The notes below the pieces were generated by a model. The model made no database searches. It saw only the letters and a program-made list of their open reading frames with translations, and was not told the DNA's origin. Made by a program: the position numbers and the translations under genes. Shown here one piece after another: positions 1 through 26,565 of a stretch of 39,604 nt of DNA. The DNA is from an uncultured Pseudomonadota bacterium (GTDB lineage: Bacteria > SAR324 > NAC60-12): assembly GCA_913020725.1 (NCBI GenBank), contig CAJWCD010000011.1:1-39604 (forward strand), given 5' to 3'. How positions within the stretch are numbered: the first letter of the stretch is position 1; each line of letters opens with the position of its first letter.

Positions 1-1651
1 TACCGTTGCCGAAGGCCAGGTGAGTGAGCGGAGCGAGTTCCTCAGTGATGGTGTAAGAGCCGCTTTCATTATCAATCGTGGTGACAAAGCTTAAGTTGTC
101 CGGGATTTCGCCGATGTGACTCCATGCCGAACCATCGGAAGACTGGAAGATCCTACTGGTGTTGTCTAAAGCCAGAACACGGTTGCCGTCATAAAGAACA
201 GCCGTCGGCATCGGAGTGATTTCAGGAGTTTGGGGTAGTTCAATCACCGAATTTTCAGGTCCTTCCTTCCAGGTCAGGCCGTCTCCGGAATAATAAATTT
301 GGGACTGGAACGCCTCGTATACAGGAATATATTGGTTCCCCACTTCAGGAGCATATTCATTCTGAACTCCAGCTGCCGACGCATCCATGGTCAAAAACCT
401 TGGAATCCTGTTGTTTTCCGCAACAAGAGTTCCTCCCGAGCTGCAATTTACTCCGTCGCAGAGGATCGGTTGCTGGTAGGCATAGGCAATCAGTTCCATC
501 GAGACAGTGGTCGAACCCTCGACCCCATTCACACAGGTACCCGCATGACCCGGCATGTCCTCACAGACGGTGACCCGGAGAATCCCGTCATCGCCGTCAC
601 GGTATCCCTGCATCACTGTTTGAATGTGTCCTAATCCCACATTGGCCCTGTTGTCATCGGTCAGTTCCGTGTAGACCGATGAATCAAAGATTCGCATTCC
701 GCCTCCGATGTACTCCCAGTGGGCCACCATCCGGCTGAAGTTCTCATCGTCACTGACCAACAAGGTCCACTGCAGACTTGAATCACCTGTTCGTTCGGCA
801 CTGATGCTTTCAATCACCGGATTCGTGTCAACGATGCTTTGTGAATCAATCGGGCCCGTGATGTAAGTGTTGAATGTTGAAGACACTCCGATTTCCAAAT
901 CGTTCGACACCCGCACCTGAAGATGCTGGACACTGATATTGTCGGGCGCAGTGTAAGTGGTGGCGATCTCGGAATAACCGGAGCCATTGTCGCTCTGAGT
1001 TCCTGTTGCAGGATTGAAGGCACCTCCCAACGATCCACTGAGCGGCACACCAGTTTGTTCGTCAATGGATCGAAAACGGTAGTGAATCGGTGCCTGATCG
1101 CTGTTTGTGACAGAAATCTGGATGGAGTCACTCGTGTTCTTTTCCATCTGGAATGGACGGTTGATTTTTGTGATTCTCGGTACGCTCAACTCCCGTTCAT
1201 CCAGCATCGGTGCCATGCGAAGAGCAAGAGAGATGTTGTCGGAATCAATGACTGTTATCGTCGAACCCCGGAAGATCTCAACCAAACTTCCATTGTCGGC
1301 AGTCTTGTAGGCATGACCGGTGATGGAGTACTCAAAACTGAGGATCAAATTGTTGAGTGTTCCCTGCCAAACACCGTTTTGCCGGGTCAGGGTGAAATCC
1401 TCGACAACCCGCCTGCCATCGAATGTTCTGTCAACATCAAGCGCCAACCGCTCAATCTCGTCAAAGGTTCCCAGGAAGCGTTCCGTCCGCGAGGAGCCAC
1501 CGAGGCTCACCTGCAGGGCCACCGGCCCCTGAACTGCTGTTTTCCTGTTTTGTTCCTGCTCCGTGGGCAGGGCACAGGCTGCCAAAAACAGCAGGCTCCC
1601 CAGGGCTGCTGCGAGAATGCTTGTGAGTGTGGAGTTCATCGTTTTTTTCAT
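1..1651 (-). CDS. Large surface lipoprotein with Asp-box (BNR-like) repeats, 3'-truncated by the window edge; absent from ORF track
   Basis: Hand translation: ATG at 1651 preceded by GAGG, MKKTMNSTLTSILAAALGSLLFLAAC (lipobox LAAC), open for 550 codons to the edge. Asp-box-like YSGDGLTW and QSSDGSAW near the edge; 7 D-N-x-S/T motifs. Confidence 0.85.
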   Translation of the reverse strand, partial: MKKTMNSTLTSILAAALGSLLFLAACALPTEQEQNRKTAVQGPVALQVSLGGSSRTERFLGTFDEIERLALDVDRTFDGRRVVEDFTLTRQNGVWQGTLNNLILSFEYSITGHAYKTADNGSLVEIFRGSTITVIDSDNISLALRMAPMLDERELSVPRITKINRPFQMEKNTSDSIQISVTNSDQAPIHYRFRSIDEQTGVPLSGSLGGAFNPATGTQSDNGSGYSEIATTYTAPDNISVQHLQVRVSNDLEIGVSSTFNTYITGPIDSQSIVDTNPVIESISAERTGDSSLQWTLLVSDDENFSRMVAHWEYIGGGMRIFDSSVYTELTDDNRANVGLGHIQTVMQGYRDGDDGILRVTVCEDMPGHAGTCVNGVEGSTTVSMELIAYAYQQPILCDGVNCSSGGTLVAENNRIPRFLTMDASAAGVQNEYAPEVGNQYIPVYEAFQSQIYYSGDGLTWKEGPENSVIELPQTPEITPMPTAVLYDGNRVLALDNTSRIFQSSDGSAWSHIGEIPDNLSFVTTIDNESGSYTITEELAPLTHLAFGNG

Positions 1652-1674
1652 GGGACCCTCTTGGGTTCAGGATT

Positions 1675-1707
1675 AAAACCCCCGGTGCCACCACGGCATC
1701 CGGGGTT
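1675..1707 (-). terminator. Possible intrinsic terminator or attenuator hairpin
   Basis: Minus strand reads CCCCGG-A-TGCC GTGGT GGCA-CCGGGG(G) then TTTT, about 90 nt after the stop at 1796 and about 25 nt before the next ATG. Confidence 0.45.
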
Positions 1708-1795
1708 GATCAAAAACTTGTGATTCCAAGAATGCGATTGCATTGCATCCTCTCGCTTCCACTCCTAGAGTGGATTGCGTCCAGCGCGGGGCGGT

Positions 1796-3565
1796 TCAAC
1801 AACTGCCCGGCGTAATTTTCTGCTCGAACACCGAGGTTCCACCTTCCCCTTGGCCATCGGTGACCCAGACCTTGAAGGTGCCGCTGGTGATGGCAGCCGA
1901 GTATCCGTAAAGCACGGTTGGATTGGTCGTCTCCGATTCGAAGGCATAGCCGAACCAACCCGCCTTCGAGAAATACCAGAGGTAGCGCAGGTCTCCTAGC
2001 GGACCGTCGTCCTTGACCTCTGCCCAGACCGTGAGTTGGGAGGGATTGCTGGTATTGATTTCACAGTGGATTTTTAGAATCACCGGATTGAAGGCAACAC
2101 TGAAAGTTCCTCCTGACGAGGCTATGACTTCAAAGGCAGTGATGCTGAGATTGTCGCTCACATTCCCGGCTTCATCCGTCACATTGAGTTTGCAGTCTGT
2201 GTAAGTGCCGGGGCTGAGGGAGTTGAACGTGATGGTATTGTTGTCGGTATGGGCATTGATGATGTCGCTGCTACAACTCCCGTAATAGCGGATTTTCCCG
2301 ATTTCTGTGGAACTGAAGATGTAGCTTGGCGAGTCTTCCGCCGTGGGTGTGAGAACGGCAAGTACTTCTTGGAGGACGGGTGCGGTGGTGTCCGTCTTGA
2401 CTGCAGAAATGGTGAAGGCGGTCACCGCAAGCGGATCGCTGGCTTTTCCGGAACTGGTGGTCACGGTGATGGTGCAGTTGCTGTGGGTTCCCGCAGCCAA
2501 GGTATTAAAGAAGATGGTGTTGTTTCCGGAGGTTGCATTGTCGGTGTCACTGGAGCAATCCCCGGAATAGCTGATGGTGCCCGCATAGGTCGAGTGGAAG
2601 GTGTAGTCCGGAGTGGGGTTGGTGCCGTTGTCCACGGCGGCCACTTCCGTCAAGACGGGCTTCTTGCCCACCACCGCCGTGATCGTGCTGGTGGCGTTGT
2701 CATTGGCAGTTTCAATATCGCTCACGACATCCTGCTCCACGACCGTGACGGAGTTGTTGTCCGGAATCGCCTGGAACACGCCCTTGCTCAGGGCGTTTTT
2801 GAGGGTTTGCAGCGTGGTGGTGGTGTCCATGCCATACGCATCACTTGTGGTGGGAATCACGTTGGTGTCGGACAGCGAGCGTTTGAGCGCAGTGAAGGCA
2901 ACGGAATCCAGCGAGACGTTGTCGGACTTCAACCCGTCTTCCTTGAAAACCGTGGCAAGGTTGTTGAGCGCGGTGAGTTGTGCGGACGTGCTGCTTGTCA
3001 GTTGGCTCGTCACATGCCAGTAGGTCTCCACGGTTTTGGCGACCCGGAGCAGTTGAGCGGGCACTCCGCTGGGGGAGGCAATGTCGGTGTTCCAACCGCC
3101 GAGGGCATCGAGTTGGGTTTTGAGAGTGGGCTGAGTGACGACCAGTGTCGTCAGCGGGGTCAGGTTCCAACTGCTCTCGGAACTGGTGGGTGCGGGGGTC
3201 ATCATCGGCGCGGCGGCCACCGCGACTCCCTTCGAGTTGAGGTAGGTGCCTCCGGTTGAAACAATCACATAGTTGGCATAACCGACACTGAGGGAAAACT
3301 GCGCGGAGGAGGAGGACGTGGTGCTGACCTCATCGGCATCCAGTTGGAAATTGCCGGTGGTGCTGCCGCTTACTATCTTGTCCGCGATCACGGTGGCCCC
3401 ATGGACATAACCTTGCGACAACTTGCCGGAGACTGCGACCGACGAGGAGGACGCTTGGGGAGCGGTGGAACTGATAGTGACCTCAGTCCCACAGCCGTAG
3501 AGGGTCGCCAGCAGCAACACGCTGGCGGCAACCCGGAGTGCAAACTGGGGTGAGCAGGTGGTCAT
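1796..3565 (-). CDS. Ser/Thr-rich lipoprotein with two tandem Ig-like repeats and a C-terminal beta-rich domain
   Basis: 589 aa; lipobox LYGC; GGAGG RBS upstream; two ~85-aa repeats (PVL.EV..V...Y.F.ST..G.I.Y.G.CSSD...NNTI.FN.L..GT...C...VT). Confidence 0.85.
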   Translation of the reverse strand: MTTCSPQFALRVAASVLLLATLYGCGTEVTISSTAPQASSSSVAVSGKLSQGYVHGATVIADKIVSGSTTGNFQLDADEVSTTSSSSAQFSLSVGYANYVIVSTGGTYLNSKGVAVAAAPMMTPAPTSSESSWNLTPLTTLVVTQPTLKTQLDALGGWNTDIASPSGVPAQLLRVAKTVETYWHVTSQLTSSTSAQLTALNNLATVFKEDGLKSDNVSLDSVAFTALKRSLSDTNVIPTTSDAYGMDTTTTLQTLKNALSKGVFQAIPDNNSVTVVEQDVVSDIETANDNATSTITAVVGKKPVLTEVAAVDNGTNPTPDYTFHSTYAGTISYSGDCSSDTDNATSGNNTIFFNTLAAGTHSNCTITVTTSSGKASDPLAVTAFTISAVKTDTTAPVLQEVLAVLTPTAEDSPSYIFSSTEIGKIRYYGSCSSDIINAHTDNNTITFNSLSPGTYTDCKLNVTDEAGNVSDNLSITAFEVIASSGGTFSVAFNPVILKIHCEINTSNPSQLTVWAEVKDDGPLGDLRYLWYFSKAGWFGYAFESETTNPTVLYGYSAAITSGTFKVWVTDGQGEGGTSVFEQKITPGSC

Positions 3566-3686
3566 TGACCCTCCTGAAGGAGAAAAACCTTCGTGCTGCT
3601 ACGGAAGGGATTCATCCGGAAGAAACTCGACGGTTCCCAACGTCTTGAAAGACGCTCTTGAAACAAAGTAAGAGATTTGGTTCGGA

Positions 3687-3715
3687 AAGATACCACTGCC
3701 TCTGTGGGAATGCAA
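3687..3715 (-). promoter_or_regulatory. Putative sigma70 promoter for the 3565 lipoprotein gene
   Basis: Minus strand TTGCAT-17 bp-TATCTT with an extended -10 TG. Confidence 0.55.
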
Positions 3716-3825
3716 GCCAAAAACTCTCATTTCCGCTATTTCACAATGGGTTTGTCCGGATCCCGGTTCTGTCCGAACAGGGAAAACCAGAAAACAGGCA
3801 GAGCGAAGTGGTGCATCGTCTCGGC

Positions 3826-5745
3826 TCAACTGCTCGGGCACATCAACGAGGAGCGCGACAGGCTCCCGAAGTGAGTGCTGGCGCTGAAGCCCGAGGCGAA
3901 CTTCTGCGTCCCGGTGCTGTTGTCCATGAAGGTCGAATTCGACAGCGAGGTCATGTTGTCCATGAAGGTCGTGTTGCTCAAGGAGTTCTGCGGGTTGATC
4001 GTCGCGTAACTCATGATGGTGTTGTTGTCCACCTGAATGACAAGCACGGGTTGGGGGTCACTGGCCAAAGGCGTGAATCCGGCTTTGAGGTTGTAGGGAC
4101 CATAGGTGAGGTTGTCGCTGAGTCCGGGACCGCTCAGGGTGAGGGTGACGTTTCGGGCCGTGGGACTGCCACCGTCCTTGCCGAATTCCTCGAAATACAC
4201 CAGATAGGTGCCGCCCTCGACCTTGCCGCTGTCGGTGGCCCAGACCTGAGTTTCCGGAGTCCCCGCCGTGGTGCTGTCGCCAATGTGCACCTGCTTGTAA
4301 AGATCGGCGGTGCCGGTCAGGTTCTTCTCTCCGGGAGGGCAGAAGCTGATGTGGTACTGGGTGCCCGGACTGAACCCTGCTGCCGAGGCATTGTCCGTGT
4401 AATTCCAGCTGGGGTAGTAGTAGGTGTGCAGGTCCAGATCCCCGGCCGATTCCCAGTTCAAGTTCAGGCACATGGTGCTGTTGTCAAGGCAGGAGTCGTA
4501 ACTCGCCGTCGCGTTGTCAAGCGTGGTGGAGGTGCCGTCCACGGTTGAGATCACCTGAATGGAGTTGCTGCCATGCGCAAGGCCGAGTTGGTTGCTGGTG
4601 GACGTTTGGTGAACAAATCCGTAACAGCGGTCGGTGTCATCACCGGACATGCAGGTGTCGGTGCCCAGGCAGAACTTGTAGCAGTAGGAGGTGTTGTCCG
4701 AGTCGCTGCTCACGTTGTCCACCAGCGAGAGATTGACGGAGGGCGTGATGGTGGTTTCGGTGCCACCCACGCGCTTGACGGTGAGCGTGGCGATCAGTTG
4801 CGAGACGTTGTCGGCCTTACTCGCAGGCACGTTGAGCCGCAGGTAGCCGGAAATCTCGGCGGTGCGGCGGGTGCCGTTGTCGTTGGCAACGGTGAGGTTG
4901 TCGATGCTCAACCACGAGGAGTTGATCATTTCCGGGGTGAGTTGGACCGCGTAGGTTCGTTCGCCGCTCACCACGTTGGTTTCACTGATGACGAAGGTTT
5001 CCTGAAGCGTCTTGAAGCCGGGCAGCGCAATGGTGGTGGTCAGGGAGGTTCCCCTAGGATCGTAGGAAACGTTGTCCACCACGAGGTGGTAGGTCTTGTT
5101 GTCGCTGCTGAAGTAGCTGCTCGTGTTGTTGTCGCTGGGGAAGGCGTAGGTGGTGGCGTTGTCCGGAAAGCCGGAGGACTGGACGGTGCCCTGTTGCGAG
5201 GTTGTGTTGTCGTAGTAGGAGGCGACCCCTTTGTAAGGTCCGTTTCCATACTTGTCGGTGATCTGGAGCCGGAACTTGGCGTAGAGCATTTCGTACACCG
5301 TGACGATGATGGTGCTGGCGTAGTTTTCTGTGGAGATGGTGAAGGTGTCCGTCTCGCCCGTCGCGTCTGGAGTGGTGGAGGTCGTGCTGGCCTTGTAGAG
5401 GTACACGCAAAGCTTCAGCGCGGTTCCAAGGGGCACAGCGTTGAAGGTTGCCGTGGGGGTGCCCCCCAAAGTGATCGCCACCGCTCCCAAGCTCCCAGTG
5501 TTGCCGGGACTCCCGGAACAGGACGCCACCGGGATCAGCTCGACCGTGGCACGGTTCGAGGTGTTGTCCGCAATCCGCGATGCCTGCCGCAGCAGTGCCG
5601 GGGAATGTGTGTTGGACGCCAAACGCAACCGCACGGTGGCCGTGCCTTCCGATTCGGGCGACAAGTCCCCGCAGCCCACAACGCCCCATGCCAGCAACAG
5701 GGCCAGCGGGACCAGTCTGAAGGGGAAGTGGCGAACGAAACCCAT
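3826..5745 (-). CDS. Ser/Thr-rich lipoprotein with a YfaP/DUF2135-like C-terminal domain
   Basis: 639 aa; lipobox VVGC; LNLNWESAGDLDLH...GTPE...GGTYLVYF resembles the YfaP-type L.W...DLDLH motif; 18 D-N-x-S/T motifs. Confidence 0.85.
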   Translation of the reverse strand: MGFVRHFPFRLVPLALLLAWGVVGCGDLSPESEGTATVRLRLASNTHSPALLRQASRIADNTSNRATVELIPVASCSGSPGNTGSLGAVAITLGGTPTATFNAVPLGTALKLCVYLYKASTTSTTPDATGETDTFTISTENYASTIIVTVYEMLYAKFRLQITDKYGNGPYKGVASYYDNTTSQQGTVQSSGFPDNATTYAFPSDNNTSSYFSSDNKTYHLVVDNVSYDPRGTSLTTTIALPGFKTLQETFVISETNVVSGERTYAVQLTPEMINSSWLSIDNLTVANDNGTRRTAEISGYLRLNVPASKADNVSQLIATLTVKRVGGTETTITPSVNLSLVDNVSSDSDNTSYCYKFCLGTDTCMSGDDTDRCYGFVHQTSTSNQLGLAHGSNSIQVISTVDGTSTTLDNATASYDSCLDNSTMCLNLNWESAGDLDLHTYYYPSWNYTDNASAAGFSPGTQYHISFCPPGEKNLTGTADLYKQVHIGDSTTAGTPETQVWATDSGKVEGGTYLVYFEEFGKDGGSPTARNVTLTLSGPGLSDNLTYGPYNLKAGFTPLASDPQPVLVIQVDNNTIMSYATINPQNSLSNTTFMDNMTSLSNSTFMDNSTGTQKFASGFSASTHFGSLSRSSLMCPSS

Positions 5746-5838
5746 GACATCTTCTGATTTGGCACACCCAAGGGAGGCCAGTGGAAAATTACGCTCGTGT
5801 TACTCAGAGATCTCTTTGATTCAGGACTTACGCAAAAT

Positions 5839-5941
5839 GGCTCCCATGCTTCGCGTGGGAGCCAAGGACTCGCCCGCTTTGCGGTTCAGAACGTGGACGC
5901 AAAGCGTCTGGGGCGGCGTTCCCACGCAAAGCATGGAAACG
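5839..5941. repeat. REP/REPIN-like composite palindromic element
   Basis: Outer palindromes GGCTCCCA-tgcttcgcg-TGGGAGCC and CGTTCCCACGCAAAGCATGGAAACG; inner short palindromes CCGCTTTGCGG and GACGCAAAGCGTC. Confidence 0.7.
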
Positions 5942-5989
5942 ATTTTGGAAAGTTGCGTAAGTCCTGTGATTGATGCTCATGATTTTCAA

Positions 5990-7039
5990 CTACTGAAAAT
6001 TCAACTGCAACTGGATATTGGTTTCCAGCGTCGCTGGAGGTGCCGTGGGAGTCTCGGACACCACTTCTTCAAGCAAATCCAGCAAATCGTCTGCACCCGT
6101 CTCGTCGAGCAGGGCTGCGGTGTCATCGGCTCCCGTGCGACGCTGCTCGGCAATGGCTTCGGTGGTTTCCAAGCTGCCGAATTCCACATCCTCAAAACCC
6201 TCGGTGCCTTCTGATTCCAGAATCTGCGCACGTTCAGCGGCCCCCACTTTCTCCGGCTGTGTCGGGGCAAATCCGCCCTGCACGCGGGAAACCGTGTTTG
6301 CAGGGACGGTGACTTCATGATCCGGCAGATCCGCTGCGGCCACTCCAACCTCGCCTTCCACGGTGAAGACGTTGGTCACGTCTCCCGCCGTGGCGACCAC
6401 GAAATCGGTGCCGCGCACCGCGATAATCGCCGAGACCGTGCGCACCTGAAACCGGGCCATGCGCTTGCGGGGTCCGGGTTGCTTGGCGCCGGAACCGATC
6501 TTGGCCCAGAAGCTCTCTTCCTGCTCGTCTTTCCGTGCTTCCTGCGCTGCAAGGGATTCCGGAAGTCGCAGAGCTTTTCCCACGCCGGGTTGATCTCCGG
6601 ATTTCTGGGACGTTCCCATGCGTTCCTTCAGTCCGAATTTTTGTGGCCCGCCTGCTTGCGGACGCAGCGACTTGAGTGCTGCCTGACGTTCCTCTGTTGC
6701 TTCCGGAGCCGGGGCAACCTTGAAATTGCCCTTGCCCGTGAGCAGGGCAATCTTGGTCTGGCTGGTCGTGACCCCCTTGAAGTGCAGAAAGGCGTTTGAG
6801 AACAACTCGATGACTTCCGACTCCCCGCGCACTGCAACGATGGCCCGCGTGTCCGGACCCGTGTGCAGACGATCTCCGCGCTGCAAACGGTATTTTTCCC
6901 CGACCGAACTCAGAAACTGGCTCCGGCCTTCACGCAACAACTTCACCACGCCCTTCTCCAACCGCAGGGTGCCGCCCTGCGCAAACACGGAAGTGCCGAA
7001 CACGATCAGCAACGACAGCACGGTGAGCATCCGGCGCAT
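5990..7039 (-). CDS. Secreted FecR-domain protein with an internal insertion and acidic tail
   Basis: Signal peptide ending VFA/Q; FecR-type motifs GDRLHTG...A.V and FQVRTVSAIIAVRGTDFVV...VEGEV; starts 1 nt after the upstream stop. Confidence 0.8.
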   Translation of the reverse strand: MRRMLTVLSLLIVFGTSVFAQGGTLRLEKGVVKLLREGRSQFLSSVGEKYRLQRGDRLHTGPDTRAIVAVRGESEVIELFSNAFLHFKGVTTSQTKIALLTGKGNFKVAPAPEATEERQAALKSLRPQAGGPQKFGLKERMGTSQKSGDQPGVGKALRLPESLAAQEARKDEQEESFWAKIGSGAKQPGPRKRMARFQVRTVSAIIAVRGTDFVVATAGDVTNVFTVEGEVGVAAADLPDHEVTVPANTVSRVQGGFAPTQPEKVGAAERAQILESEGTEGFEDVEFGSLETTEAIAEQRRTGADDTAALLDETGADDLLDLLEEVVSETPTAPPATLETNIQLQLNFQ

Positions 7040-7040
7040 G

Positions 7041-8297
7041 TCAATAGCTCCACATCATTTGGACAGCGACCTGGCTCTCGCTGTACGCATTCAACGCTTC
7101 GTTTGAAGACACCTTGATTTGCTTGGCGTAGAGGTCCAGCAGCAGCGACTCGCTCCAGCGGTACTTGACCCCAAAGCCCGACGTGTTACGGCGGTTCCGC
7201 ACCTGAAGTCCAGTGACGGCGTTGGGTTGCTGATACTGCTGGTTGTGGCTCTGGTACTGCAAGTGGGGCGTCCAGCTGCCCCATGTCATCCGCGCACTGC
7301 CTTTCGTGGTGCTGGAACTGGTGTTGTTGCTGGCGTCCGTGAAGGCTCCGGATTTCTGGTCCGCCCCGACCTTTGTGGAAAACCCGCCAAAACGCAGCCG
7401 CAAACCAAGCTCCGAGGAGGTCACGGTGCCCGCGTTGCCCGCGCTTTTTCCAGTCTGCACCTCCACTTGAACTTTTGCAGACGCCACATAGTTCCCTGCA
7501 AACGGCACGTCCACTCCTGTGAAAAAGAACAAACTTCTGGTGCTGGTCTGAAACTCCCCCAAGGTGCTGGGCTTGCTCGTGTCCGTACTCTTGAGACTGA
7601 AGACGCTCTGTCCCAGACCGGTGGTGAGGTTCGTGCCCCACAAGCGTTGGTGGTCGTACTCGAGCGCCAGTTTGCGATAGCCGGTTTCCCGGTTGCTCAG
7701 GGTGCGGTCGAGTTGACGATCCGTCTTGAGGAGGAACTTGAGGGACAAGCCCGCATTCGCCATCAACTTGTAGCGGTACCCGGAGATCAACACGGCGTCG
7801 AGCCGACCAGCAGGTTTTTTTGTGGTCAACTTGTTCGCTTGCAGCATGTTGTCGCTCTGCGTGTAGCCCAGCACAAAGGCAAGGCTCAGCGGATCAATCT
7901 TGAGCTTTTCTTCCTTCATCTCCTGCGTCGTGTAAGTCACCGTAAAGGATTCCTGCTGCTCCGAGGTCTTCGTCTGCACAAAGACCGCAAACTCGTTGTC
8001 GCCCGGCTTGAGCTGGTAGGGCACCTCGAACACCTGCCAGTCCGCCCCCGGACGCACCATCTGCGCGAAGCCGTTGATCTTGACCACCAACAAGGGATCA
8101 AAGGCACTGACCTCCACCACAAACACTCCGTCGGAATGCTTAACCTTGGACGGTGACGTTTGCATGATCAGCGTCTCTGCCACCGTGTCGGAGTTCTCTT
8201 GTGCAAACACTCGATTCTCCATTCCTCCCCACAGCATCAACAAAACCACCAGCGCAACCCAGCCGCGTTGGCACCACCAATCACTGTTGCTCCGCAT
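7041..8297 (-). CDS. Predicted outer-membrane beta-barrel with an N-terminal Ig-like domain
   Basis: Signal peptide (VFA/QE); LKPGDNEFAVFV Ig-like segment; alternating amphipathic strands; C-terminal VAVQMMWSY ending in an aromatic residue. Confidence 0.7.
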   Translation of the reverse strand: MRSNSDWWCQRGWVALVVLLMLWGGMENRVFAQENSDTVAETLIMQTSPSKVKHSDGVFVVEVSAFDPLLVVKINGFAQMVRPGADWQVFEVPYQLKPGDNEFAVFVQTKTSEQQESFTVTYTTQEMKEEKLKIDPLSLAFVLGYTQSDNMLQANKLTTKKPAGRLDAVLISGYRYKLMANAGLSLKFLLKTDRQLDRTLSNRETGYRKLALEYDHQRLWGTNLTTGLGQSVFSLKSTDTSKPSTLGEFQTSTRSLFFFTGVDVPFAGNYVASAKVQVEVQTGKSAGNAGTVTSSELGLRLRFGGFSTKVGADQKSGAFTDASNNTSSSTTKGSARMTWGSWTPHLQYQSHNQQYQQPNAVTGLQVRNRRNTSGFGVKYRWSESLLLDLYAKQIKVSSNEALNAYSESQVAVQMMWSY

Positions 8298-8301
8298 CCG
8301 C

Positions 8302-9870
8302 TCACGGGAAGAAGCGGCGGGTCACCTCAGTCGCTGGTGGCCGAGTGAAAATGATGTCCACCCGTCGATTGGCCTGACGAGCCTCCCGGAGGGGCTTGCC
8401 CCGCTTGCGCTTTCCGGAGGCGTCCACAATTGGCACCCTCGGGCGGGTGTCCGCATAACCAGCGGCGGCCAGCAGGTTGGGGTCAAACCCGGCCTGCTTG
8501 ATCATGAAGACCGCCATGTTGGTCGCCCGGATGGTGCCGAGTTCCCAGTTGTTCGCAAAGAGGCTGTTCGGCCCCGTCCGCACATCATCGGTGTGCCCCT
8601 CCACCCGGATCGCGTCGCCCTCCAGCTCATAGCGGTTGCGGATGGTGGTCATGAACTCGCGCAGCTTGCCCACTCGTTTCGGGAGCAGCGTGGCCTTCCC
8701 GCTGCGAAACAGGAACGCCGAGGGCAGCGAGAGGATGCAGCGCGACTTCGAGGCATTCAACTCGAACCCCTCAAACTGCCCCGCGTTCTCCCGCAGAAAA
8801 CGGTGGATTCCGCTGCAATCCTTCATCTCCAAGGCGCCAACGATGGTGTTGAACTGTTTGTCCGCCTTGCCGGTTTCGGCGTGTTGCAGCTTTTCGCTGA
8901 GGATCTCGACGATGAGGGATCGCGTTGCGTAGAGCGGCACGTCCTCCTGCATCACTTCCAGCGCGATCGATCCCTTCTCGGTGTAGGGGTAGATGGTGAT
9001 CGCCTTCCCGTCTGGAAAACGATAATCCACGCCCTCCTTGGCGGAACCCCGCGTTCCCAGAGGAATGATGGTTTCCACCCCGCTGATGGGTTGGATGTGT
9101 ACCGTCACATTGACACTCCCTTCATAGATTTCTCGTCGGTCAATCTCGAACGATACCTTGGGCAAAGGTTCATCATCCGAAATCACCAACTCCTTGGAAA
9201 TCAGGCTTCCGCGCTCCACGTTTCCCTCCAAAGTGCCAATCTGCACCACGATGGTCTCGTCCAACTCAAACAGGTCATCATTGATGAGGCAGAGGGGGAG
9301 GTAGCCCGCTTGTTCGTCTTTCCTGACAGTCACCATCTCCCTGCCCAACAGGTAATCGTACTGCATCAGTTCCAGGGGCAGTGCTTGCAGTCCCTCGTCC
9401 GTGCAAAGGGTCGCATCGGTCGGTCCCCGACGGGCACTTCCGGTGAAGTGGAGGGGCACATGAATCTCCTCACCCACATTGTCACTGACCATCACCCCAA
9501 TCCGGCTGACTAGCTGCTGCTCCGAAAGACGCATCTTCACCAAGCTTGTCAAGATGAGGCGCTTTTGGTAGAGCGCCATCAGTTCCGGGCCAAGCTGCTT
9601 GCCAAGCTGCTCAGCGTATTCGGCTTCAATCTCGTAGGTCGCTCCCATCAGTTTGCGAATTTGCCCCAAAGCGTCCGTAGGGAGAAAGGTCTGCAAACTC
9701 GACAACACCGGTTCGGTCACTTTGAACTGCCCCTTGATGCTGACCTGCGGTTTGCTGAACAGCGACAGGTACACGAAGAAGCAAAACAACAGGGTGATCA
9801 GATCGGCAAAGGTGATGATCCAGCGGACCTCTCTGCTGCCCCCCGCTCCCTTGCGCTTGCCAGTAAACAT
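8302..9870 (-). CDS. motB: MotB/PomB-family stator subunit with two inserted Calx-beta-like domains
   Basis: TM WIITFADLITLLFCFFVYL with the conserved Asp; OmpA-like domain (LFRSGKATL, VEGHTDD, NWELGTIRA, GYADTRP, NRRVDI); inserts GSAKEGVDY, INDDLFELDETIVV, ISDDE. Confidence 0.88.
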   Translation of the reverse strand: MFTGKRKGAGGSREVRWIITFADLITLLFCFFVYLSLFSKPQVSIKGQFKVTEPVLSSLQTFLPTDALGQIRKLMGATYEIEAEYAEQLGKQLGPELMALYQKRLILTSLVKMRLSEQQLVSRIGVMVSDNVGEEIHVPLHFTGSARRGPTDATLCTDEGLQALPLELMQYDYLLGREMVTVRKDEQAGYLPLCLINDDLFELDETIVVQIGTLEGNVERGSLISKELVISDDEPLPKVSFEIDRREIYEGSVNVTVHIQPISGVETIIPLGTRGSAKEGVDYRFPDGKAITIYPYTEKGSIALEVMQEDVPLYATRSLIVEILSEKLQHAETGKADKQFNTIVGALEMKDCSGIHRFLRENAGQFEGFELNASKSRCILSLPSAFLFRSGKATLLPKRVGKLREFMTTIRNRYELEGDAIRVEGHTDDVRTGPNSLFANNWELGTIRATNMAVFMIKQAGFDPNLLAAAGYADTRPRVPIVDASGKRKRGKPLREARQANRRVDIIFTRPPATEVTRRFFP

Positions 9871-9912
9871 TTGGGCGTCTCCCTCTTACTGCAATCCAAG
9901 TGTGAGCCTGAA

Positions 9913-10788
9913 TCAGCCCTCGTATTGTTTGTCAAATTCCTCCCGCTTCTTGGGCAGAAACAAATCCAAGCCCTGCATGAGCGTGTAGGGGGATTCCCGC
10001 CGGGCGATACCGTGCACACTCTCCCGGATCATCTCCAACAGCACCAGGTTCGACTCCTTGAGCTGCTTGCGTTTTGAGGCGACCGGCAAAAAAAGCAAGT
10101 TGGCGAGGATCACCCCATACAGGGTGGTCAGCATGGCGATCGACATGGATTGCATCACGGCCCGGACACTTCCGGTTTCGGACAGCATCAGCACCAGACC
10201 AACAATCGTTCCGACCATCCCAAAGGCCGGAGCCGCCGTGCTCATGAACTCCAGAATCCCGATCTCCTCATCGGCGCGATGTTCGTACATGCGGATTTCC
10301 GACTGAATGATCCCCTCAATCTGATCGTCCGAAACCTGCTCCCGCACGATCAGGCTCTCGATCCAGCGCCGCATGAAGACATTCTCAATCCCGTTCAAAT
10401 CCTCGTTCGTGATGCGCTTGCCGTTGAAGCGTTTCTCGCCGAGCTTGCGGGACTGCTCATAAATCTCCTCGGCTTCCAGTTCGGCTTTGTCGGCGGCAAA
10501 CACCTTGAGGATGCTAGCGAAGCAACGAGTGGTTTTCTTGAAGGGGAAGGCGATGAACGTCACCGAAAAGGTGCCGCCAAACACGATGAAGAAGGACTTG
10601 ATGTCCACAAAGCGCGTCAACTGGAAAATGATTTTTCCCGTCCCGGACTCCATCCCCTCCCAGCCCTCAAGGATCAACGCCAGATTGGAGAATTCCGTGG
10701 GCCAGAGGACACCCATCAAGATGAAGAGGGTTCCGGAAATAAAACCGATGAGGGTGCCGATCTTGTCAGTTTTTGGGGCAACAGCCAT
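9913..10788 (-). CDS. motA: MotA/PomA-family stator subunit
   Basis: FVDIKSFFIVFGGT, APAFGMVGTIVGLVLML, AMLTTLYGVILANLLFLPVASK; GAGG RBS overlapping the upstream stop. Confidence 0.92.
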   Translation of the reverse strand: MAVAPKTDKIGTLIGFISGTLFILMGVLWPTEFSNLALILEGWEGMESGTGKIIFQLTRFVDIKSFFIVFGGTFSVTFIAFPFKKTTRCFASILKVFAADKAELEAEEIYEQSRKLGEKRFNGKRITNEDLNGIENVFMRRWIESLIVREQVSDDQIEGIIQSEIRMYEHRADEEIGILEFMSTAAPAFGMVGTIVGLVLMLSETGSVRAVMQSMSIAMLTTLYGVILANLLFLPVASKRKQLKESNLVLLEMIRESVHGIARRESPYTLMQGLDLFLPKKREEFDKQYEG

Positions 10789-10791
10789 TCC

Positions 10792-12531
10792 TCATTCCTC
10801 CTGATTGGTGGTGGTTGGGAGACGGTTCAATTCGTTGTGGACCAGTCGCATGAAGAGACTGCGATGCAGGTCGCGCATCTGCTCGATACGAGCGAGGGCG
10901 TCCTCGTCTTCACTGGCCTGCTGCTGAAGTTGCTCCAGTTGCTCCTGGTAGAACTGGCGGGTGTCTTCTGTGAACTCACTCAAGAGCATCTCCTGAAACT
11001 GCGGCTCTGCCTCGAAGAGGACGTACTGCACAGAAACGCGCCCCCCGTTGCTGAGCTTGGAACGCTCGAAGCGTTCCATCACTCTGCCGAGCAGGGCATG
11101 GTCCACTTCGGAACGTTCGTGCAACTGACCGAAGGTCACGCCCTTGGTCTGAAGCTCCTGCAAGGCACCGCCGACCTGTTCCTTCTTTTCCGGATGCTTG
11201 GTCTGCAAGGCTTCGGCACTGGCGAGAATCTGCTGCCATCTCTCGGTTTCGAGCTGTCCGGAGAGTTCCCCGATGCGTCCGAGCGCATCGAACTGCTGCT
11301 CCAGGGTTTTTGCCGTTTCCGCCAGCTTTTCACCCAACTCCTGAAGCTTCTTTTCCGAGATGGCAACGTTGCGCATCTGGTGCAAGATCACAAACGCCTC
11401 CTCTGGAGGCAGCGTCTTGAGAACGTGTGAAGCGTCAACGAGGTCAATCTGGCTGAGGACCACGGCCCGGTCCTTGTTCTGTAGGGTTTTGATCAGGTTG
11501 GTACGATCCGTGGGGGGCAGTGCCTTGAGGAAGCGCAGGTGATCCTCGCGTTCCCCTTCCTCAGCCGCCGCCTCTTCCTCGGCAAGCGGCAAGCCCTCGT
11601 CTTCGGTTTCCTCTTCCGGTTTCATCGACTCGATGGCCTCGGCGACCTTGCCCAAGGCGGGTTGGAGCGGATGCTGCTTTTCCTCGACGTCGTCTTTGCG
11701 TGTACTCCGGGAAACAAAGAAGAAGAACACCAGCAGCAGTAGGATCAGAAAGCCGAGCAATCCGGCGAAGATCATCTCCTGAATGCTGATCTGCTCCAGT
11801 GTTTCTGATCGGTATTCCGGAATCAGTTTCTCCACGCCAAGCATCTCGTAGCCGTTGGGGAATTTGGCGCTGATCTCGGCGGCCTGCTGAAGCTTGGTGC
11901 GGGCATCGGCAGACTTCCCGCCCCGCAGATCATCCCGCGCGGCCACGAGCAGATTCACATAATCCACCAACTTCTGAGAGAAATCCGGACGCTCGATCTT
12001 CACCAGACCCAGCACCACCGACAGCTCAAAGCGGTCCTGGAGGTCCAGCTTGACGTCGTTGCGGAGGCGAACCTCGATCACGTCCAGGTCCACCTCCGTT
12101 TTGGCGACCACCGTGATCGTCCGGTAGCTAAAGACGACGTTGGCCTCTTCCGGACGGGTCATGATCTGCACACCGGGCACGACATCGCTGTCGCGCTTCC
12201 GCAAATTGGTGTCGATCAGGGCGTGACGCTGCACCGAAACATCCACATACTCCTCCCCCAACATCTTCTGGAGGATACGGTGCATCTGCTGCTTGAGTTC
12301 CGGCTCCGCACGATTGCGGACGAGGTACTCCGCCTGCGTGGTGGTGGCGAATGCCAGCAGACCTCCCAAGCAGAGGCCCACCTGCAAAACCCGGAGGCGG
12401 GAAAGCAAGAAGGCGTGGCCGGAAAATGGGTTCGTCATGCCGTCGGACCATGAGGGAAAGCGGTCAAATGCCTGGAAACGCCCCTCCATGGGCGAATTTT
12501 TCTGAGAATTTGCCTGATTGTACTCCATCAC
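10792..12531 (-). CDS. Single-pass membrane protein: FliF-like periplasmic ring module + TM + FliG middle/C-terminal-like domains (true start possibly ATG 12438)
   Basis: Signal-like segment ending TQA/EY; TM MIFAGLLGFLILLLLVFFFFV; cytoplasmic AVVLSQIDLVDASHVLKTLPPEE and VTFGQL..VDHALLGRVM..VLFEAEPQFQEMLLSEF follow FliG M/C patterns. The FliF similarity is weaker. Confidence 0.7.
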   Translation of the reverse strand: MMEYNQANSQKNSPMEGRFQAFDRFPSWSDGMTNPFSGHAFLLSRLRVLQVGLCLGGLLAFATTTQAEYLVRNRAEPELKQQMHRILQKMLGEEYVDVSVQRHALIDTNLRKRDSDVVPGVQIMTRPEEANVVFSYRTITVVAKTEVDLDVIEVRLRNDVKLDLQDRFELSVVLGLVKIERPDFSQKLVDYVNLLVAARDDLRGGKSADARTKLQQAAEISAKFPNGYEMLGVEKLIPEYRSETLEQISIQEMIFAGLLGFLILLLLVFFFFVSRSTRKDDVEEKQHPLQPALGKVAEAIESMKPEEETEDEGLPLAEEEAAAEEGEREDHLRFLKALPPTDRTNLIKTLQNKDRAVVLSQIDLVDASHVLKTLPPEEAFVILHQMRNVAISEKKLQELGEKLAETAKTLEQQFDALGRIGELSGQLETERWQQILASAEALQTKHPEKKEQVGGALQELQTKGVTFGQLHERSEVDHALLGRVMERFERSKLSNGGRVSVQYVLFEAEPQFQEMLLSEFTEDTRQFYQEQLEQLQQQASEDEDALARIEQMRDLHRSLFMRLVHNELNRLPTTTNQEE

Positions 12532-13009
12532 GCGGGATCGTCAAGCTTTTTGCTGGAGGTTTGTACGGTTCCAAAAACCGTTTGGCGGACGAATCCCCGG
12601 AACCCAAGGGCGTGGGAAATGCCTGATTCGGTTGGCTGCGGGAACGTGTTGGAAGGCGAGAAGCCAGAGGGTAAAAAACCATTTCGCAGATGGGTCTCAA
12701 AAAAACAAGACCTGCGAGTCCGCGAGATGATGACTGCCTTTGCTCCAGGCAGTTGCGTTGTACAGGTCCGCCGAGCAAACGCAGCGACGGTCCGTGTCTG
12801 GAAACACATCAGGAGACTTATGGGTTCCTGAGTTATCCTCACCCGGAATCAGGTTCCCAGAATCTCAAGAGAACACAAGGCCAATCCGAAGAAGAAGGAT
12901 TCCTTCCCGACCGCTATACTTTGTGGATTTTTTTGGATGTGGTGAAAACGGTTAGGTGTACGATTTCGTGAGGTTGTACTCCAAACCTGTTTTGAGCTCC
13001 CTGTTTTTT

Positions 13010-13071
13010 CCGTTCGGGCTGAGCCTGTCGAAGCCTGATGGTTCACCCTTCGACAAGCTCAGGGCGAACGG
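13010..13071. repeat. REP-like inverted repeat, possibly also terminating the enoyl-CoA hydratase transcript
   Basis: CCGTTCGGGCTGAGCCTGTCGAAG...CTTCGACAAGCTCAGGGCGAACGG; related copy at 19708-19778. Confidence 0.75.
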
Positions 13072-13115
13072 GCTGGTAGCCGCTTGCAGGAAAACAACCT
13101 AACGAATCAGCACAG

Positions 13116-13937
13116 TTAGGTGTGGGGAGACCAACTCGGGCGGCGTTTTTCGAGGAAGGCATCCACACCTTCCAGCGCGGCGGCGTACATGAGGTTACAG
13201 GCCATGCGGTCTCCGGCAAAGTTGTAGGCTTCCGAAAGCGGCATTTCCAGTTGTTGATAGAACACCGCCTTGCCGAGTCGCACGGCCTCCGGAGGCTTGG
13301 CGGCAATCTTCTCGGCGATCTCCAGAATCACAGCATCCAACTGATCGGGGGAGACCACACGGTTGACCAGCCCCCAGTCGAGCGCCGTGGGGGCGTTGAT
13401 GAAGTCCCCGGTGAAGAGCATCTCGAAGGCATTTTTGCGGGCGAGGTTGCGGCTCACGGGCACTGCGGGCGTGGAGCAGAAGAGTCCAAGGTTGATCCCG
13501 GAGGTTGCAAAGCGGGCCTCCTCGGCCGCCACCGCAAGGTCGCAGGCCGCGACCAGCTGACAGCCTGCCGCCGTGGCGATGCCCTGCACCCGGGCGATCA
13601 CGGGCTGGGGTAGCCGGTTGACCGAGAGCATCATGCGCCCGCACTGCGCGAACAACTCCCGGAAGTAGCGTTCATCGGTCTTGGAACGCATCTCCCGGAG
13701 GTCGTGTCCAGCACTGAACGCCTTGCCGTTCGCAGCGATCACCACCACCCGTGCCGATTCATCGTGGGTGAGGTCATCGAACGCCGCTTGCAGCGCGGCA
13801 AGCATTTCTTCGGAAAGGGCGTTGTACTGTTTCGGACGGTTGAGGGTGAGCGTGACGATGCCCTCGCGTTCTTCGCGTAGCAGGATCGGTTCGGCAATTC
13901 GGGGACGGGCAACAGATTCAGTGGCGACTTCAGTCAT
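13116..13937 (-). CDS. Enoyl-CoA hydratase/crotonase family protein
   Basis: LTLNRPKQYNALS, FSAGHDL, ATAAGCQLVAACDLAVA, GLFCSTP. Confidence 0.95.
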   Translation of the reverse strand: MTEVATESVARPRIAEPILLREEREGIVTLTLNRPKQYNALSEEMLAALQAAFDDLTHDESARVVVIAANGKAFSAGHDLREMRSKTDERYFRELFAQCGRMMLSVNRLPQPVIARVQGIATAAGCQLVAACDLAVAAEEARFATSGINLGLFCSTPAVPVSRNLARKNAFEMLFTGDFINAPTALDWGLVNRVVSPDQLDAVILEIAEKIAAKPPEAVRLGKAVFYQQLEMPLSEAYNFAGDRMACNLMYAAALEGVDAFLEKRRPSWSPHT

Positions 13938-24255: not shown

Positions 24256-24701
24256 GGGGAGGGCTGTCCGTTCTCAAATCCTCCCTCGTAGAGGACAAAC
24301 TGCGCGTCTTTCGAATAGAGGGTTCCGGTGCCGTGGTACTTTCCCCGCTGAAACTCGCCCGCATAAATTCGGAAACCATTGACATCAAACTGCACGCCTT
24401 TCCCCTCGGGCCGACCGGATTTGAATCCACCTTCGTAGGCGATCTGTCCACTGTCCCAGAAAAGCAGTCCCTTCCCCTCAGCCACCCCTTTCTTGAGTGG
24501 CCCCGTGTAGCGCAGGTTGCGATCCTGATAGTAGGTGTCGGGCGGCAACCCGCCGGGGTCCGGAAGCAGCCGCACGATCACAGGGCCAAGCCCCAAGGCG
24601 GGCACCGACACTGCCATCGCCAAAATCAACAGTCCAAATACACGGATCATGAGAGGTTTCCAAGGCTGAAGAAACTGGCTATTCTTTGGGACGGATCGCA
24701 T
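24252..24701 (-). CDS. Exported MORN-repeat protein (start probably at the second Met)
   Basis: Signal-like segment; repeats YTGPLKKGVAEGKG, YEGGFKSGRPEGKG, YAGEFQRGKYHGTG, YEGGFENG; ATGA overlap with the next gene. Confidence 0.85.
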   Translation of the reverse strand: MRSVPKNSQFLQPWKPLMIRVFGLLILAMAVSVPALGLGPVIVRLLPDPGGLPPDTYYQDRNLRYTGPLKKGVAEGKGLLFWDSGQIAYEGGFKSGRPEGKGVQFDVNGFRIYAGEFQRGKYHGTGTLYSKDAQFVLYEGGFENGQPSP

Positions 24702-25662
24702 CCGTGCGAGGATCGATCAGGAAACGCTGCGGCTTGCCAGTGGGGGTGGACTTAAGCAACAGTGTTCCTGCACCAACATCCTCGAATCCGGGCGCATCCA
24801 TCATCGCAGTGATCAGGATGAGTCCGTCGAACGGCTGCGCCCCTCTGGGCAAAGGCTTGAGAGTGAACGGCACCCGCACTGACCCGCGTTCGTTGAGGTT
24901 TACACGCTGGGGCAGCACCACTCCTGCGAAATTGCTTTCCAGTAAGACCGGTCCCGGACGCGCCAAAGAGCGACGGTTGCGGGGATTTCCCAATTCGATG
25001 GAGAGGAAGAGCCGGAGGGGTTTCTTGGCAAAGAGATCCACCTCGTACTGCTCGGTGCGCAAGAAGAGTTTGTAGGGCAACGGTGCTCGTTTTTCTGCAA
25101 GATCATCCATGCGCCGGAACTCCGGGAGCCACTGCCCCGGACTCAACTCGACAGTGGACGCGGCATTGGAAACCTCGATTTTCCCTTCGGTGAGGTGAAC
25201 GGTGGTGAGTTCTCCAGACTGCTTCACCAGCAGCACGGTTCCACGCACCGCCACCACGGCGGTCGGGGTGCGGATGCTCACCTGCTGAAACTGCCGCTTG
25301 AGCCTTCCGTGCAGGGTGCCTTTTTTCAGCCCCAGCCCCAGCTTGAAGGTCCGCGCCTTGGTTTTCTGCTCCCCACCGGATTCGATGGTGAACTCGGTTT
25401 CCGCAAACAAACGGACCCGCGAACCATCTCGGAAGACAATCGTGGCCTTGGCTCCGGTTCCGGTCTTGATGACATCTCCCAATCCGAGCAAACGTCCGTT
25501 GCGCCCGGAAACGCTTTTCTGCGTGGATTTTTGCCGGACCTCCACAAACCCCGAAACGGTGCGCATGGTGGCGATGGTGGTGGTGGCCACTGACGACTGG
25601 GCAGACAGTGGTGCCGCCAGCACCAACAACAAAGGAAGCAGCAGAAGAAAGCGGGTCAACAT
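24679..25662 (-). CDS. Secreted FecR-domain protein with an extra C-terminal domain
   Basis: Signal peptide LSA/Q; GDVIKTG..AKATIVFRDGSRVRLF, IRTPTAVVAVRGT, LTEGKIEV. Confidence 0.85.
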   Translation of the reverse strand: MLTRFLLLLPLLLVLAAPLSAQSSVATTTIATMRTVSGFVEVRQKSTQKSVSGRNGRLLGLGDVIKTGTGAKATIVFRDGSRVRLFAETEFTIESGGEQKTKARTFKLGLGLKKGTLHGRLKRQFQQVSIRTPTAVVAVRGTVLLVKQSGELTTVHLTEGKIEVSNAASTVELSPGQWLPEFRRMDDLAEKRAPLPYKLFLRTEQYEVDLFAKKPLRLFLSIELGNPRNRRSLARPGPVLLESNFAGVVLPQRVNLNERGSVRVPFTLKPLPRGAQPFDGLILITAMMDAPGFEDVGAGTLLLKSTPTGKPQRFLIDPRTDAIRPKE

Positions 25663-25712
25663 ACTCGTATCATGAAAGTGCAGTTTGCCCCGGAGACCGA
25701 GAGTTTTATGGG

Positions 25713-25741
25713 ATACTAACAGAAAATGGCGGGAGGGTCAG
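25713..25741 (-). promoter_or_regulatory. Possible sigma70 promoter
   Basis: CTGACC-17 bp-TAGTAT with extended TG, upstream of 25662. Confidence 0.3.
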
Positions 25742-25782
25742 CACGAATCGGAGGTGGCCCCGCTTCAACAGCGCAAGGTTCC

Positions 25783-26490
25783 TCAGAAACGAGTGAACAC
25801 GGAGAGGATGGGACCACCACCAACGGTGATGGTTTCGTACTGCTGACGGGAGCCGGTGGCGTTTTTCCCGAGGCTGGTGGAATTCGTGACACCGGAGGTC
25901 GAGATCGCAAGCTCGAACTTGAAGCCGGCTTCCTCGCCTCCGTACTCTGTGCCAAACTTCAGCATCTGCACGTTAATGCTGTAGTTGGAACTCTGGCTGG
26001 AGTTATAGACGGTATTGGTGTAAGTACCATTGGTCTCCCGTCCTCCATCATTGTAGGAGTTCTTGAGGCTGAAATTTCCAGTCAGCAGCCCGATGTTCAT
26101 GTTGAACTTCGCCTCGGTCGCTTCCTTCCAGTACCAGTTTCCGCCGATCAGAAATCCGGGTCCGGCATCCTGTGCGACATCGCCGATTTTGACGCTGCTC
26201 GAATCCTCGAGCGTGAAGTAACTGCGTCCCGGACTGATGCCGAGGACGGTCTCCACGGTGAAGAAGGGAGTGAAGATCCACTCAAGACCAACGGCGGTGC
26301 TTTGGATGGACGCCGAGCTTGAGGCGGTGACCTCCGTCCCGTCACCGTCGGTCGTTACGTAGGAGTAGTTGACCGTGGTGATGAAGCGCTGGAAGGAACC
26401 ACGCCATTTCTTCTTCTTCCGACCTTGCGCTTCGGCGAGCGTGGCAAAGGCGACCAGTAAAACGAGCAGCAGCGGGAGAATTCTTTTCAT
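25783..26490 (-). CDS. Predicted small outer-membrane beta-barrel protein
   Basis: MKRILPLLLVLLVAFATLAEA/Q signal peptide (ATG 26490); amphipathic strands; C-terminal SVFTRF. Confidence 0.72.
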   Translation of the reverse strand: MKRILPLLLVLLVAFATLAEAQGRKKKKWRGSFQRFITTVNYSYVTTDGDGTEVTASSSASIQSTAVGLEWIFTPFFTVETVLGISPGRSYFTLEDSSSVKIGDVAQDAGPGFLIGGNWYWKEATEAKFNMNIGLLTGNFSLKNSYNDGGRETNGTYTNTVYNSSQSSNYSINVQMLKFGTEYGGEEAGFKFELAISTSGVTNSTSLGKNATGSRQQYETITVGGGPILSVFTRF

Positions 26491-26565
26491 GCGAATCATT
26501 TGGAAACGGGAACGTGCTTGCCCTCGCGGAAATGCACACTCCACGCCACTCCAAAAGTTCCCCGC

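Follow-up and report, generated by a model that had tools for sequence, protein, structure and literature searches.

On a contig of 39,604 nucleotides (nt) from an uncultured SAR324 bacterium (GenBank assembly GCA_913020725.1, contig CAJWCD010000011.1; this whole stretch is called the window below), five consecutive genes on the reverse strand encode a FliG-related membrane protein (orf1), a MotA, a long MotB, a predicted outer-membrane beta-barrel and a secreted FecR-domain protein. The first three would form a dedicated sodium-driven rotor-stator pair outside the flagellum, and it is probable that orf1 and its stator serve a purpose other than the flagellum. As the best explanation of the locus as a whole we favour, at a probability of roughly 0.55, a switchless sodium-driven motor whose turning ring acts on surface lipoproteins. 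To our knowledge, FliG rings are known solely as the flagellar rotor, and other stator-like motors operate without FliG. Should a FliF/FliG-type rotor made of one natural chain operate with a stator of its own and without any secretion apparatus, it would be an envelope machine of a new kind. Can a rotor-stator pair work, and evolve, apart from type III export? The locus makes this old question testable, and can be read as a natural experiment in which a duplicate has shed the FliG N-domain, changed a charge pair regarded as essential and acquired a long spacer in MotB. Judged by sequence comparison, the parts are homologues of known proteins and the newness lies in the gene set as a whole; this set is not described in the open-access titles and abstracts searched, and the supplementary tables of a stator survey could include members of this MotA clade.

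The open reading frame (ORF) coordinates confirm what a first-pass annotation of the window had read from the DNA: five co-oriented genes with intergenic gaps of 3, 42, 4 and 1 nt. The putative rotor subunit orf1 (12531-10792; 579 amino acids, aa) has a signal peptide, a ring-building motif (RBM) with a partial TPR, one transmembrane (TM) helix and the FliG middle and C-terminal domains. It is followed by a MotA/PomA-type stator A subunit (10788-9913; 291 aa; Pfam MotA_ExbB at 4e-19) and by MotB (9870-8302; 522 aa; MotB_plug at 5e-10, OmpA at 4e-9, and a weak Calx-beta match). The barrel (8297-7041; 418 aa) is predicted from its sequence pattern, and the FecR-domain protein (7039-5990; 349 aa) matches Pfam FecR at 7e-9. 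In a comparison with genome G063 all five genes are under purifying selection, with ratios of nonsynonymous to synonymous substitution (dN/dS) of 0.10-0.16.

The same genome carries a separate flagellar set. Its markers comprise one match for FlhA, one for FliF, two for canonical FliG, 18 of flagellin type, four of rod/hook type, ten for FliM/N and two for the CheW domain, the canonical FliF on contig C47 being the only PF01514 match of the genome. Four MotB plugs are found (two on C21, one on C1 and one in the window), and three stator sets, on C21, on C1 and in the window. Orthologues of the C21 MotA occur in 71 of the 88 genomes of the phylum, and FlhA in 77; absences in this survey mean "not found with this query", because the two fusion-type rotor genes of one genome (G045) were missed by the first filter. 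In that sense, C21-type MotA is absent from G005, G006, G038, G039, G064-G066 and G069, all likewise without FlhA. Since it tracks FlhA across the phylum, the C21 MotAB is likely the flagellar stator. With FliF, two canonical FliG and an FlhA-tracking MotAB encoded elsewhere, the window operon is therefore not this genome's flagellar motor; the earlier worry that it might be the sole motAB and fliG of a flagellated genome falls away, and the proposal that a FliG-related membrane protein has next to it a dedicated stator separate from the flagellum is supported. The genome has no second export apparatus, FlhA being single and none of the 33 window ORFs encoding an export, rod, hook or filament protein; likewise, the Pfam scan of these ORFs agrees with the first-pass annotation that the window has no flh, flg, fliC, fliM or che gene. 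The two canonical fliG genes (C4:4109-5119 and C5:35132-36145) are similar and each stands alone among unrelated genes, and fliF (C47:3874-6668) is directly followed by fliH.

By profile comparison, orf1 is a FliG homologue. Its Pfam matches are MgtE_N at 1e-5 and FliG_M at 0.003, the latter under the cut-off, and a profile of 16 close relatives matches Thermotoga maritima FliG (1lkv) at 6e-5. Set against 56 distant proteins with FliG_M and FliG_C, the same type of profile reaches an hhalign probability of 99.6% over 206 columns. The FliG_M/FliG_C-like cytoplasmic part (10807-11544, reverse strand) lies behind the TM helix at about residues 247-272 (11716-11793, reverse strand), placed by hydropathy scan and alignment. 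The linker from this helix to FliG_M is 57 residues long in proteins of the orf1 type, against 155-162 otherwise. The FliM-binding motif EHPQ is present in both canonical FliG proteins; orf1 does not have it, and no fusion group has it among its most frequent variants.

A second copy of the rotor gene, on C8, encodes a 647-aa protein (FG) made of a signal peptide, a periplasmic domain, a TM helix, FliG_M and FliG_C, and closes an operon A-B-C-FG. The fuller operon, known from four SAR324 families, consists of motA, a short motB, A, a TPR lipoprotein, B, C and FG. Protein A has an outer-membrane-like end, B two FliF_C-like domains, and C one such domain plus TPR; profile searches against solved structures gave nothing useful for A and only TPR proteins for C (best 60 of 137 matches). 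The periplasmic part of orf1 (residues 68-235; 11827-12330, reverse strand) is homologous to protein C (hhalign 97.4%, E 1e-11). When a profile of orf1 residues 68-244, built from 16 relatives, was run against 1746 ORFs, its own type and G049 were followed by 14 C proteins and no FG. That this part might be the family rotor's own ring domain was ruled out, with 3% to FG against 97% to C. By profile comparison the domain of C matches B (96%), FG (94%) and the RBM of distant family members (93.8%); the link from orf1 to RBM3 of FliF is transitive, because these three match FliF. The ring-building motif is conserved in orf1, and PF01514, the Pfam model of full FliF with its first TM helix and RBM1/2, is not matched by it. 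In an Atlas search with residues 60-280 all scores fell below 0.9; a cluster in which 25% of the members have YscJ_FliF_C is a lead and is not used as support here. As gene C stands immediately before FG in the fuller operon, an in-frame deletion would explain orf1: we infer that it arose by duplication of that operon followed by a deletion joining gene C to the TM helix of FG.

These proteins belong to a wider family. A family profile of 102 rows, two of them canonical FliG, finds its best solved match in an engineered FliF-FliG fusion (8z4d, residues 273-938, 1e-55), and the 56 distant members alone match FliF (6scn, residues 232-558) at 2e-9. Searched against 1.84 billion representatives, it returned 2831 matches at E 0.001, many of them surely plain FliG; among the best 150 of these, 98 are at least 530 aa long, 92 with a central TM helix, and FliG_C and FliG_M were both found in 67/67 long representatives scanned. 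Named members (20 looked up) come from Fibrobacterales and Bacteroidota. A natural FliF-FliG fusion is also said to exist in a green sulfur bacterium, a mention that our literature search did not confirm. In SAR324, motAB lies in the fusion-gene cluster in 14 of 20 regions and elsewhere in two, the remaining four being cut by contig ends. Thirteen metagenome loci, found through a six-member cluster that includes a Fibrobacterales protein, tell the same: six hold a complete fusion gene, an A-like gene, a TPR gene, motA and motB, and the other seven are cut and agree as far as visible. Genome G069 (90% complete) has the fuller operon (loci L051, L176) without a match for FlhA, flagellin, rod or C21-type MotA; in G070, of the same genus, the flagellar genes are present and the fusion protein has no match. 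In G045, a fusion rotor, motA and a long motB on C11 (L196:9151-16001, L197:1-13160) lie directly upstream of a contractile injection system with sheath, two tube genes, CIS tube, spike, gp25 and baseplate J, and a second motor operon stands on C63 behind a 1495-aa protein.

With its signal peptide, RBM with PG motif, single TM helix, FliG middle and C-terminal domains and a distinct MotAB clade beside it, orf1 is on these traits a derived member of this family of FliF-ring/FliG fusions encoded beside motAB. The periplasmic ring-building domain, the family membership and the second copy in the genome had all been overlooked in the first reading. Missing from the window operon are the TPR lipoprotein and protein A, the outer-membrane protein usual in the family; A is encoded on C8 with the second copy, and a partial TPR lies inside orf1.

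The stator genes are of flagellar type. Window MotA has four TM helices and its best solved relative is PomA (8bri, 1e-24); among NCBIfam models MotP/PomA score best, under their equivalog cut-offs, and ExbB/TolQ far lower. Residues T194, T221 and T222 correspond to PomA T158, T185 and T186, R120 to R88, and N128 to E96. The three threonines, kept in 35/35 MotA rows from SAR324 loci, are those that a PomA study ties to sodium binding, and the same study holds a charge at E96 indispensable for motility (PMC10374538). In nine family MotAs from outside SAR324, T185 is Thr in two, Ser in one and Ala in six, so sodium use would not be family-wide. The E96 site carries Asn in 13/13 MotAs of the window type and Asp in 18/18 of the fuller operon, and R88 and an acid at D114 are kept in 13/13 of the window type; the R88 and E96 counts exclude the nine outside sequences, whose columns are misaligned. 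On the rotor side, the torque-helix site is R or K in 54/56 distant members and basic in 9/15 fuller-operon rotors of SAR324, and it is acidic (D or E) in 69/71 of the orf1 type, with D523 in orf1 itself. This is the site that we take, from E. coli work, to pair with PomA E96. Because the sequences of the window type are close kin, the two changes count as one joint change of charge and not as a statistical result on co-evolution. A tree of 35 MotAs, with C21 as a long branch and a root for drawing only, places window MotA with the fusion-linked MotAs, in a clade of 14 at a great distance from C21; the C1 MotA shares 41% identity with that of the window, and the two cluster apart from C21.

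MotB has the TM aspartate (Asp23), the plug and an OmpA-type peptidoglycan-binding domain. Between plug and anchor comes an insert of about 300 residues with Calx-beta-like domains, which matches Calx-beta structures of Na/Ca exchangers at 2e-10. The insert also occurs in G049 and in the two G045 operons. That it serves to reach the barrel was ruled out, since G049 and G045 have a long MotB without a barrel.

Could orf1 and its stator then be an add-on to the fuller machine on C8 and C1, co-assembling with its ring or swapping into it and using its outer-membrane protein? The homology of the periplasmic part to protein C speaks for this, as do the missing FliF-tail/FliG_N segment, the lack of protein A in the window operon and the presence of both copies in carriers. 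We consider it unlikely all the same: orf1 has kept a stator of its own across three genera, the charges on its stator and on its rotor both depart from those of the fuller copy, a joint difference more suggestive of insulation than of mixing, and the long-MotB operons of G049 and G045 encode A-like genes.

The gene order is well kept. Strong matches to orf1 occur in 19 of the 88 genomes, all in genera g1, g2 and g12, with weak ones in G049, G069 and G048. Surroundings were read in 13 of the 18 other carriers, and orf1, motA, motB and the barrel are adjacent in 12 of these. The barrel thus follows motB in 12/13, and the fear that it would not be conserved beside motAB is not borne out. FecR follows in 10 of the 11 genomes whose contigs permit a reading (counting G059 across two contigs), lipoprotein 1 in eight, and the gene after that in most cases encodes a large protein that varies. 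The motA and motB frames of G035 (L043:12536-15054) are broken, likely by assembly error because other genes, FlhA included, are broken there too.

The barrel and the FecR-domain protein have a wider distribution. The barrel is without match in Pfam, NCBIfam or PDB, and a profile search of solved structures gave nothing useful; it has a beta-rich N-terminal domain, and a crude strand scan gives ten amphipathic strands beyond residue 125, and the chain ends in an aromatic residue. The nearest named Atlas clusters are Slam proteins (SlipAM) at 0.86, a score below 0.9 and so a lead only, and PF04575 is matched neither by the window barrel nor by three relatives. With Slam, or type 11 secretion (PF04575), the locus shares a layout in which a predicted barrel stands just before a secreted partner and large lipoproteins, but here the N-terminal part of the barrel is beta-rich rather than TPR, and the constant partner is a FecR-domain protein. 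The latter has an acidic tail, a conserved strand-like C-terminal end and a single signal-like hydrophobic stretch at its N-terminus. It shares its domain with FecR anti-sigma signalling and is weakly like Leptospira Lsa33 (1e-7) and LipL45 (0.001), far under their cut-offs; against solved structures the family's profile search gave nothing useful (best 0.47). Unlike FecR signalling proteins it has no inner-membrane anchor with a cytoplasmic anti-sigma layout, and the Pfam scan of the window found no ECF sigma or TonB-dependent receptor gene beside it.

The pair recurs free of any motor on C21 and C32 of the same genome. Among 21 barrel loci of relatives that have no motor genes, 19 carry a FecR-like gene next to the barrel, one carries it at a distance of one gene, and one is cut by a contig end; proteins of 1100-1400 aa with immunoglobulin (Ig)-like domains follow in three. 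Barrels behind a long MotB form one clade of 16 (Shimodaira-Hasegawa-like approximate likelihood-ratio support, SH-aLRT, 100), 15 of them immediately downstream of motB and one where its contig ends. Barrel and FecR are a free-standing cassette, older and wider than the link to the motor, of which, by this tree, one barrel lineage has stayed with the stator through three genera. Of the five-gene machine reaching the outer membrane that was first proposed, the conserved order of the first four genes (12/13) stands; its unity is weakened, since barrel and FecR are mostly free-standing, the family usually has another protein as its outer-membrane partner, and the long-MotB operons of G049 and G045 have neither barrel nor FecR. 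A functional link of the motor to the pair is conceivable, at somewhat less than even odds.

The three lipoprotein-type genes reported downstream on the same strand are also real. Lipoprotein 1 (3826-5745; 639 aa; lipobox Cys25) is found in 15 of the 88 genomes, 14 of them in g1, g2 and g12; lipoprotein 2 (1796-3565; 589 aa; signal peptide with Cys25), the variable member, has a paralogue on C171; lipoprotein 3 (2-1651) is truncated by the contig end, its counterpart in G062 measuring 1415 aa. All three are 94-95% identical to G062 (L039:1301-9641), against 80-89% for the five operon proteins, and for this reason the surface-protein block (2-5745) may have been exchanged recently.

A different picture has no turning ring at all: the stator would be a Ton/Tol-like energiser pulling on monomeric orf1, which would transmit the force to the barrel or to the FecR-like protein and thereby serve transport or signalling at the surface. 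Like the Ton, Tol, Agl, Gld and Zorya 5:2 motors, the operon encodes a non-flagellar ion-driven stator together with envelope proteins, but those motors have no FliG-type partner. The degraded FliG_C and lost charge pair of orf1 would suit an energiser, as would the tight spacing with barrel and FecR and the barrel lineage that travels with this stator. We nevertheless hold it to be rather improbable. Window MotB has the plug and OmpA-type domain that, in a stator survey, are assigned to flagellar-type rather than Exb/Tol-type motors and are lacking in B subunits of the GIT group (PMC12505986); Pfam finds no TonB- or TolA-like gene in the operon, the ring-building motif of orf1 is conserved, and barrel and FecR mostly occur without a motor. 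Weakest is the view of MotAB as an extra flagellar stator for another load or ion, with orf1 as its docking or braking factor: several bacteria do use more than one stator set, and FlhA is found in all 19 strong orf1 carriers save one 59%-complete genome, but it is the C21 stator that tracks FlhA, the flagellated genera g9 and g11 have no fusion-protein match, window MotA sits among the fusion-linked MotAs in the tree and no longer has a charge at E96, and G069 keeps the family operon without a match for FlhA, flagellin or rod, so that this is quite improbable.

The closest known system is the core of the flagellar motor (FliF MS-ring, FliG and PomA5B2/MotA5B2; 8bri, 6scn, 1lkv, 8z4d). Shared with it are the stator type, TM aspartate, plug, OmpA domain and sodium-site threonines, and FliG middle and C-terminal domains carried on a membrane protein whose periplasmic domain is related to FliF RBM3. 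The window version differs in being a natural single chain with a signal peptide in place of the first TM helix and RBM1/2 of FliF, in having no FliM motif and no FliG N-domain, in one changed charge pair, in the MotB insert of about 300 residues, and in the absence of linked export gate, rod, hook or filament genes.

Several observations weigh against a turning ring with its own surface task. As a single sequence orf1 falls short of the Pfam FliG_C model; its own profile does not match FliF, and its ring motif compared directly with the distant family gives a weak 24.7%. About 100 residues, the FliF tail and the FliG N-domain, are missing from it, and its MotA carries Asn at the site whose charge PMC10374538 holds indispensable for motility. 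No well-covered carrier of the window operon lacks the fuller operon or a flagellum, and G069, with the fuller operon and no match for FlhA, flagellin or rod, still has a shortened FliF gene and is a fragmented assembly. As to the surface partners, 54 of 88 genomes contain relatives of the barrel (some matches short only), among them 9/9 of g11 and 3/3 of g9, genera without a fusion-protein match; G049 and G045 have no barrel or FecR adjoining their long MotB; and in G061 orf1, motAB with the barrel, and FecR with the lipoproteins lie on three contigs among other genes, all retained.

How might the switchless motor work? By analogy with flagellar motors, sodium flow past Asp23 of MotB would turn the MotA pentamer, which would push the FliG-like helix in a ring of orf1 subunits. 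Having no FliM-binding motif, this ring would be unswitched, and the changed charges on both partners would keep the motor apart from the cell's other two; ring, torque transfer and absence of switching are argued from that likeness, insulation from homology. The Calx-beta insert may be a spacer or a calcium-sensitive element between the plug and the cell-wall anchor. In the least supported step, barrel and FecR-like protein would be a separately evolved export-type pair recruited behind the motor, whose output, the movement or release of the large downstream surface lipoproteins, would speculatively pass through that pair. Taken furthest, SAR324 would hold three insulated ion motors built of flagellar parts, the window's being the most reduced: a fusion-made switchless ring with re-tuned charges and a captured Slam-like barrel plus FecR, driven by sodium to haul, spin or release giant lipoproteins. 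That full picture is doubtful; if true, the machine would be the first of a rotary class acting at the cell surface, and a living model of what a flagellar motor can be when export gate and filament are both missing.

The true start of orf1 probably lies downstream of 12531, with 12489 or 12438 likely. Upstream of this start, a sigma-70-like promoter match (12517-12544, reverse strand; 10/12 consensus positions) is the sole one in 1-13200, and is weak because 3.6 would be expected by chance. Metatranscriptome contigs touch all five genes in short pieces at a depth of about 2-6 (4/14 RNA sources, four studies), where DNA carry-over is possible. Between an enoyl-CoA hydratase gene and orf1 lies a palindromic element (13010-13075), with full-length copies about 80% identical on C6 and C164 and partial ones elsewhere, which has deep multi-source coverage in RNA contigs. 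Farther along, a second FecR-domain gene (327 aa; region 24679-26544) with an unnamed 253-aa gene upstream stands behind an ABC permease and ATPase, and a 496-aa protein (30287-31777) combines two Big_5 domains with a formylglycine-generating-enzyme-like domain.

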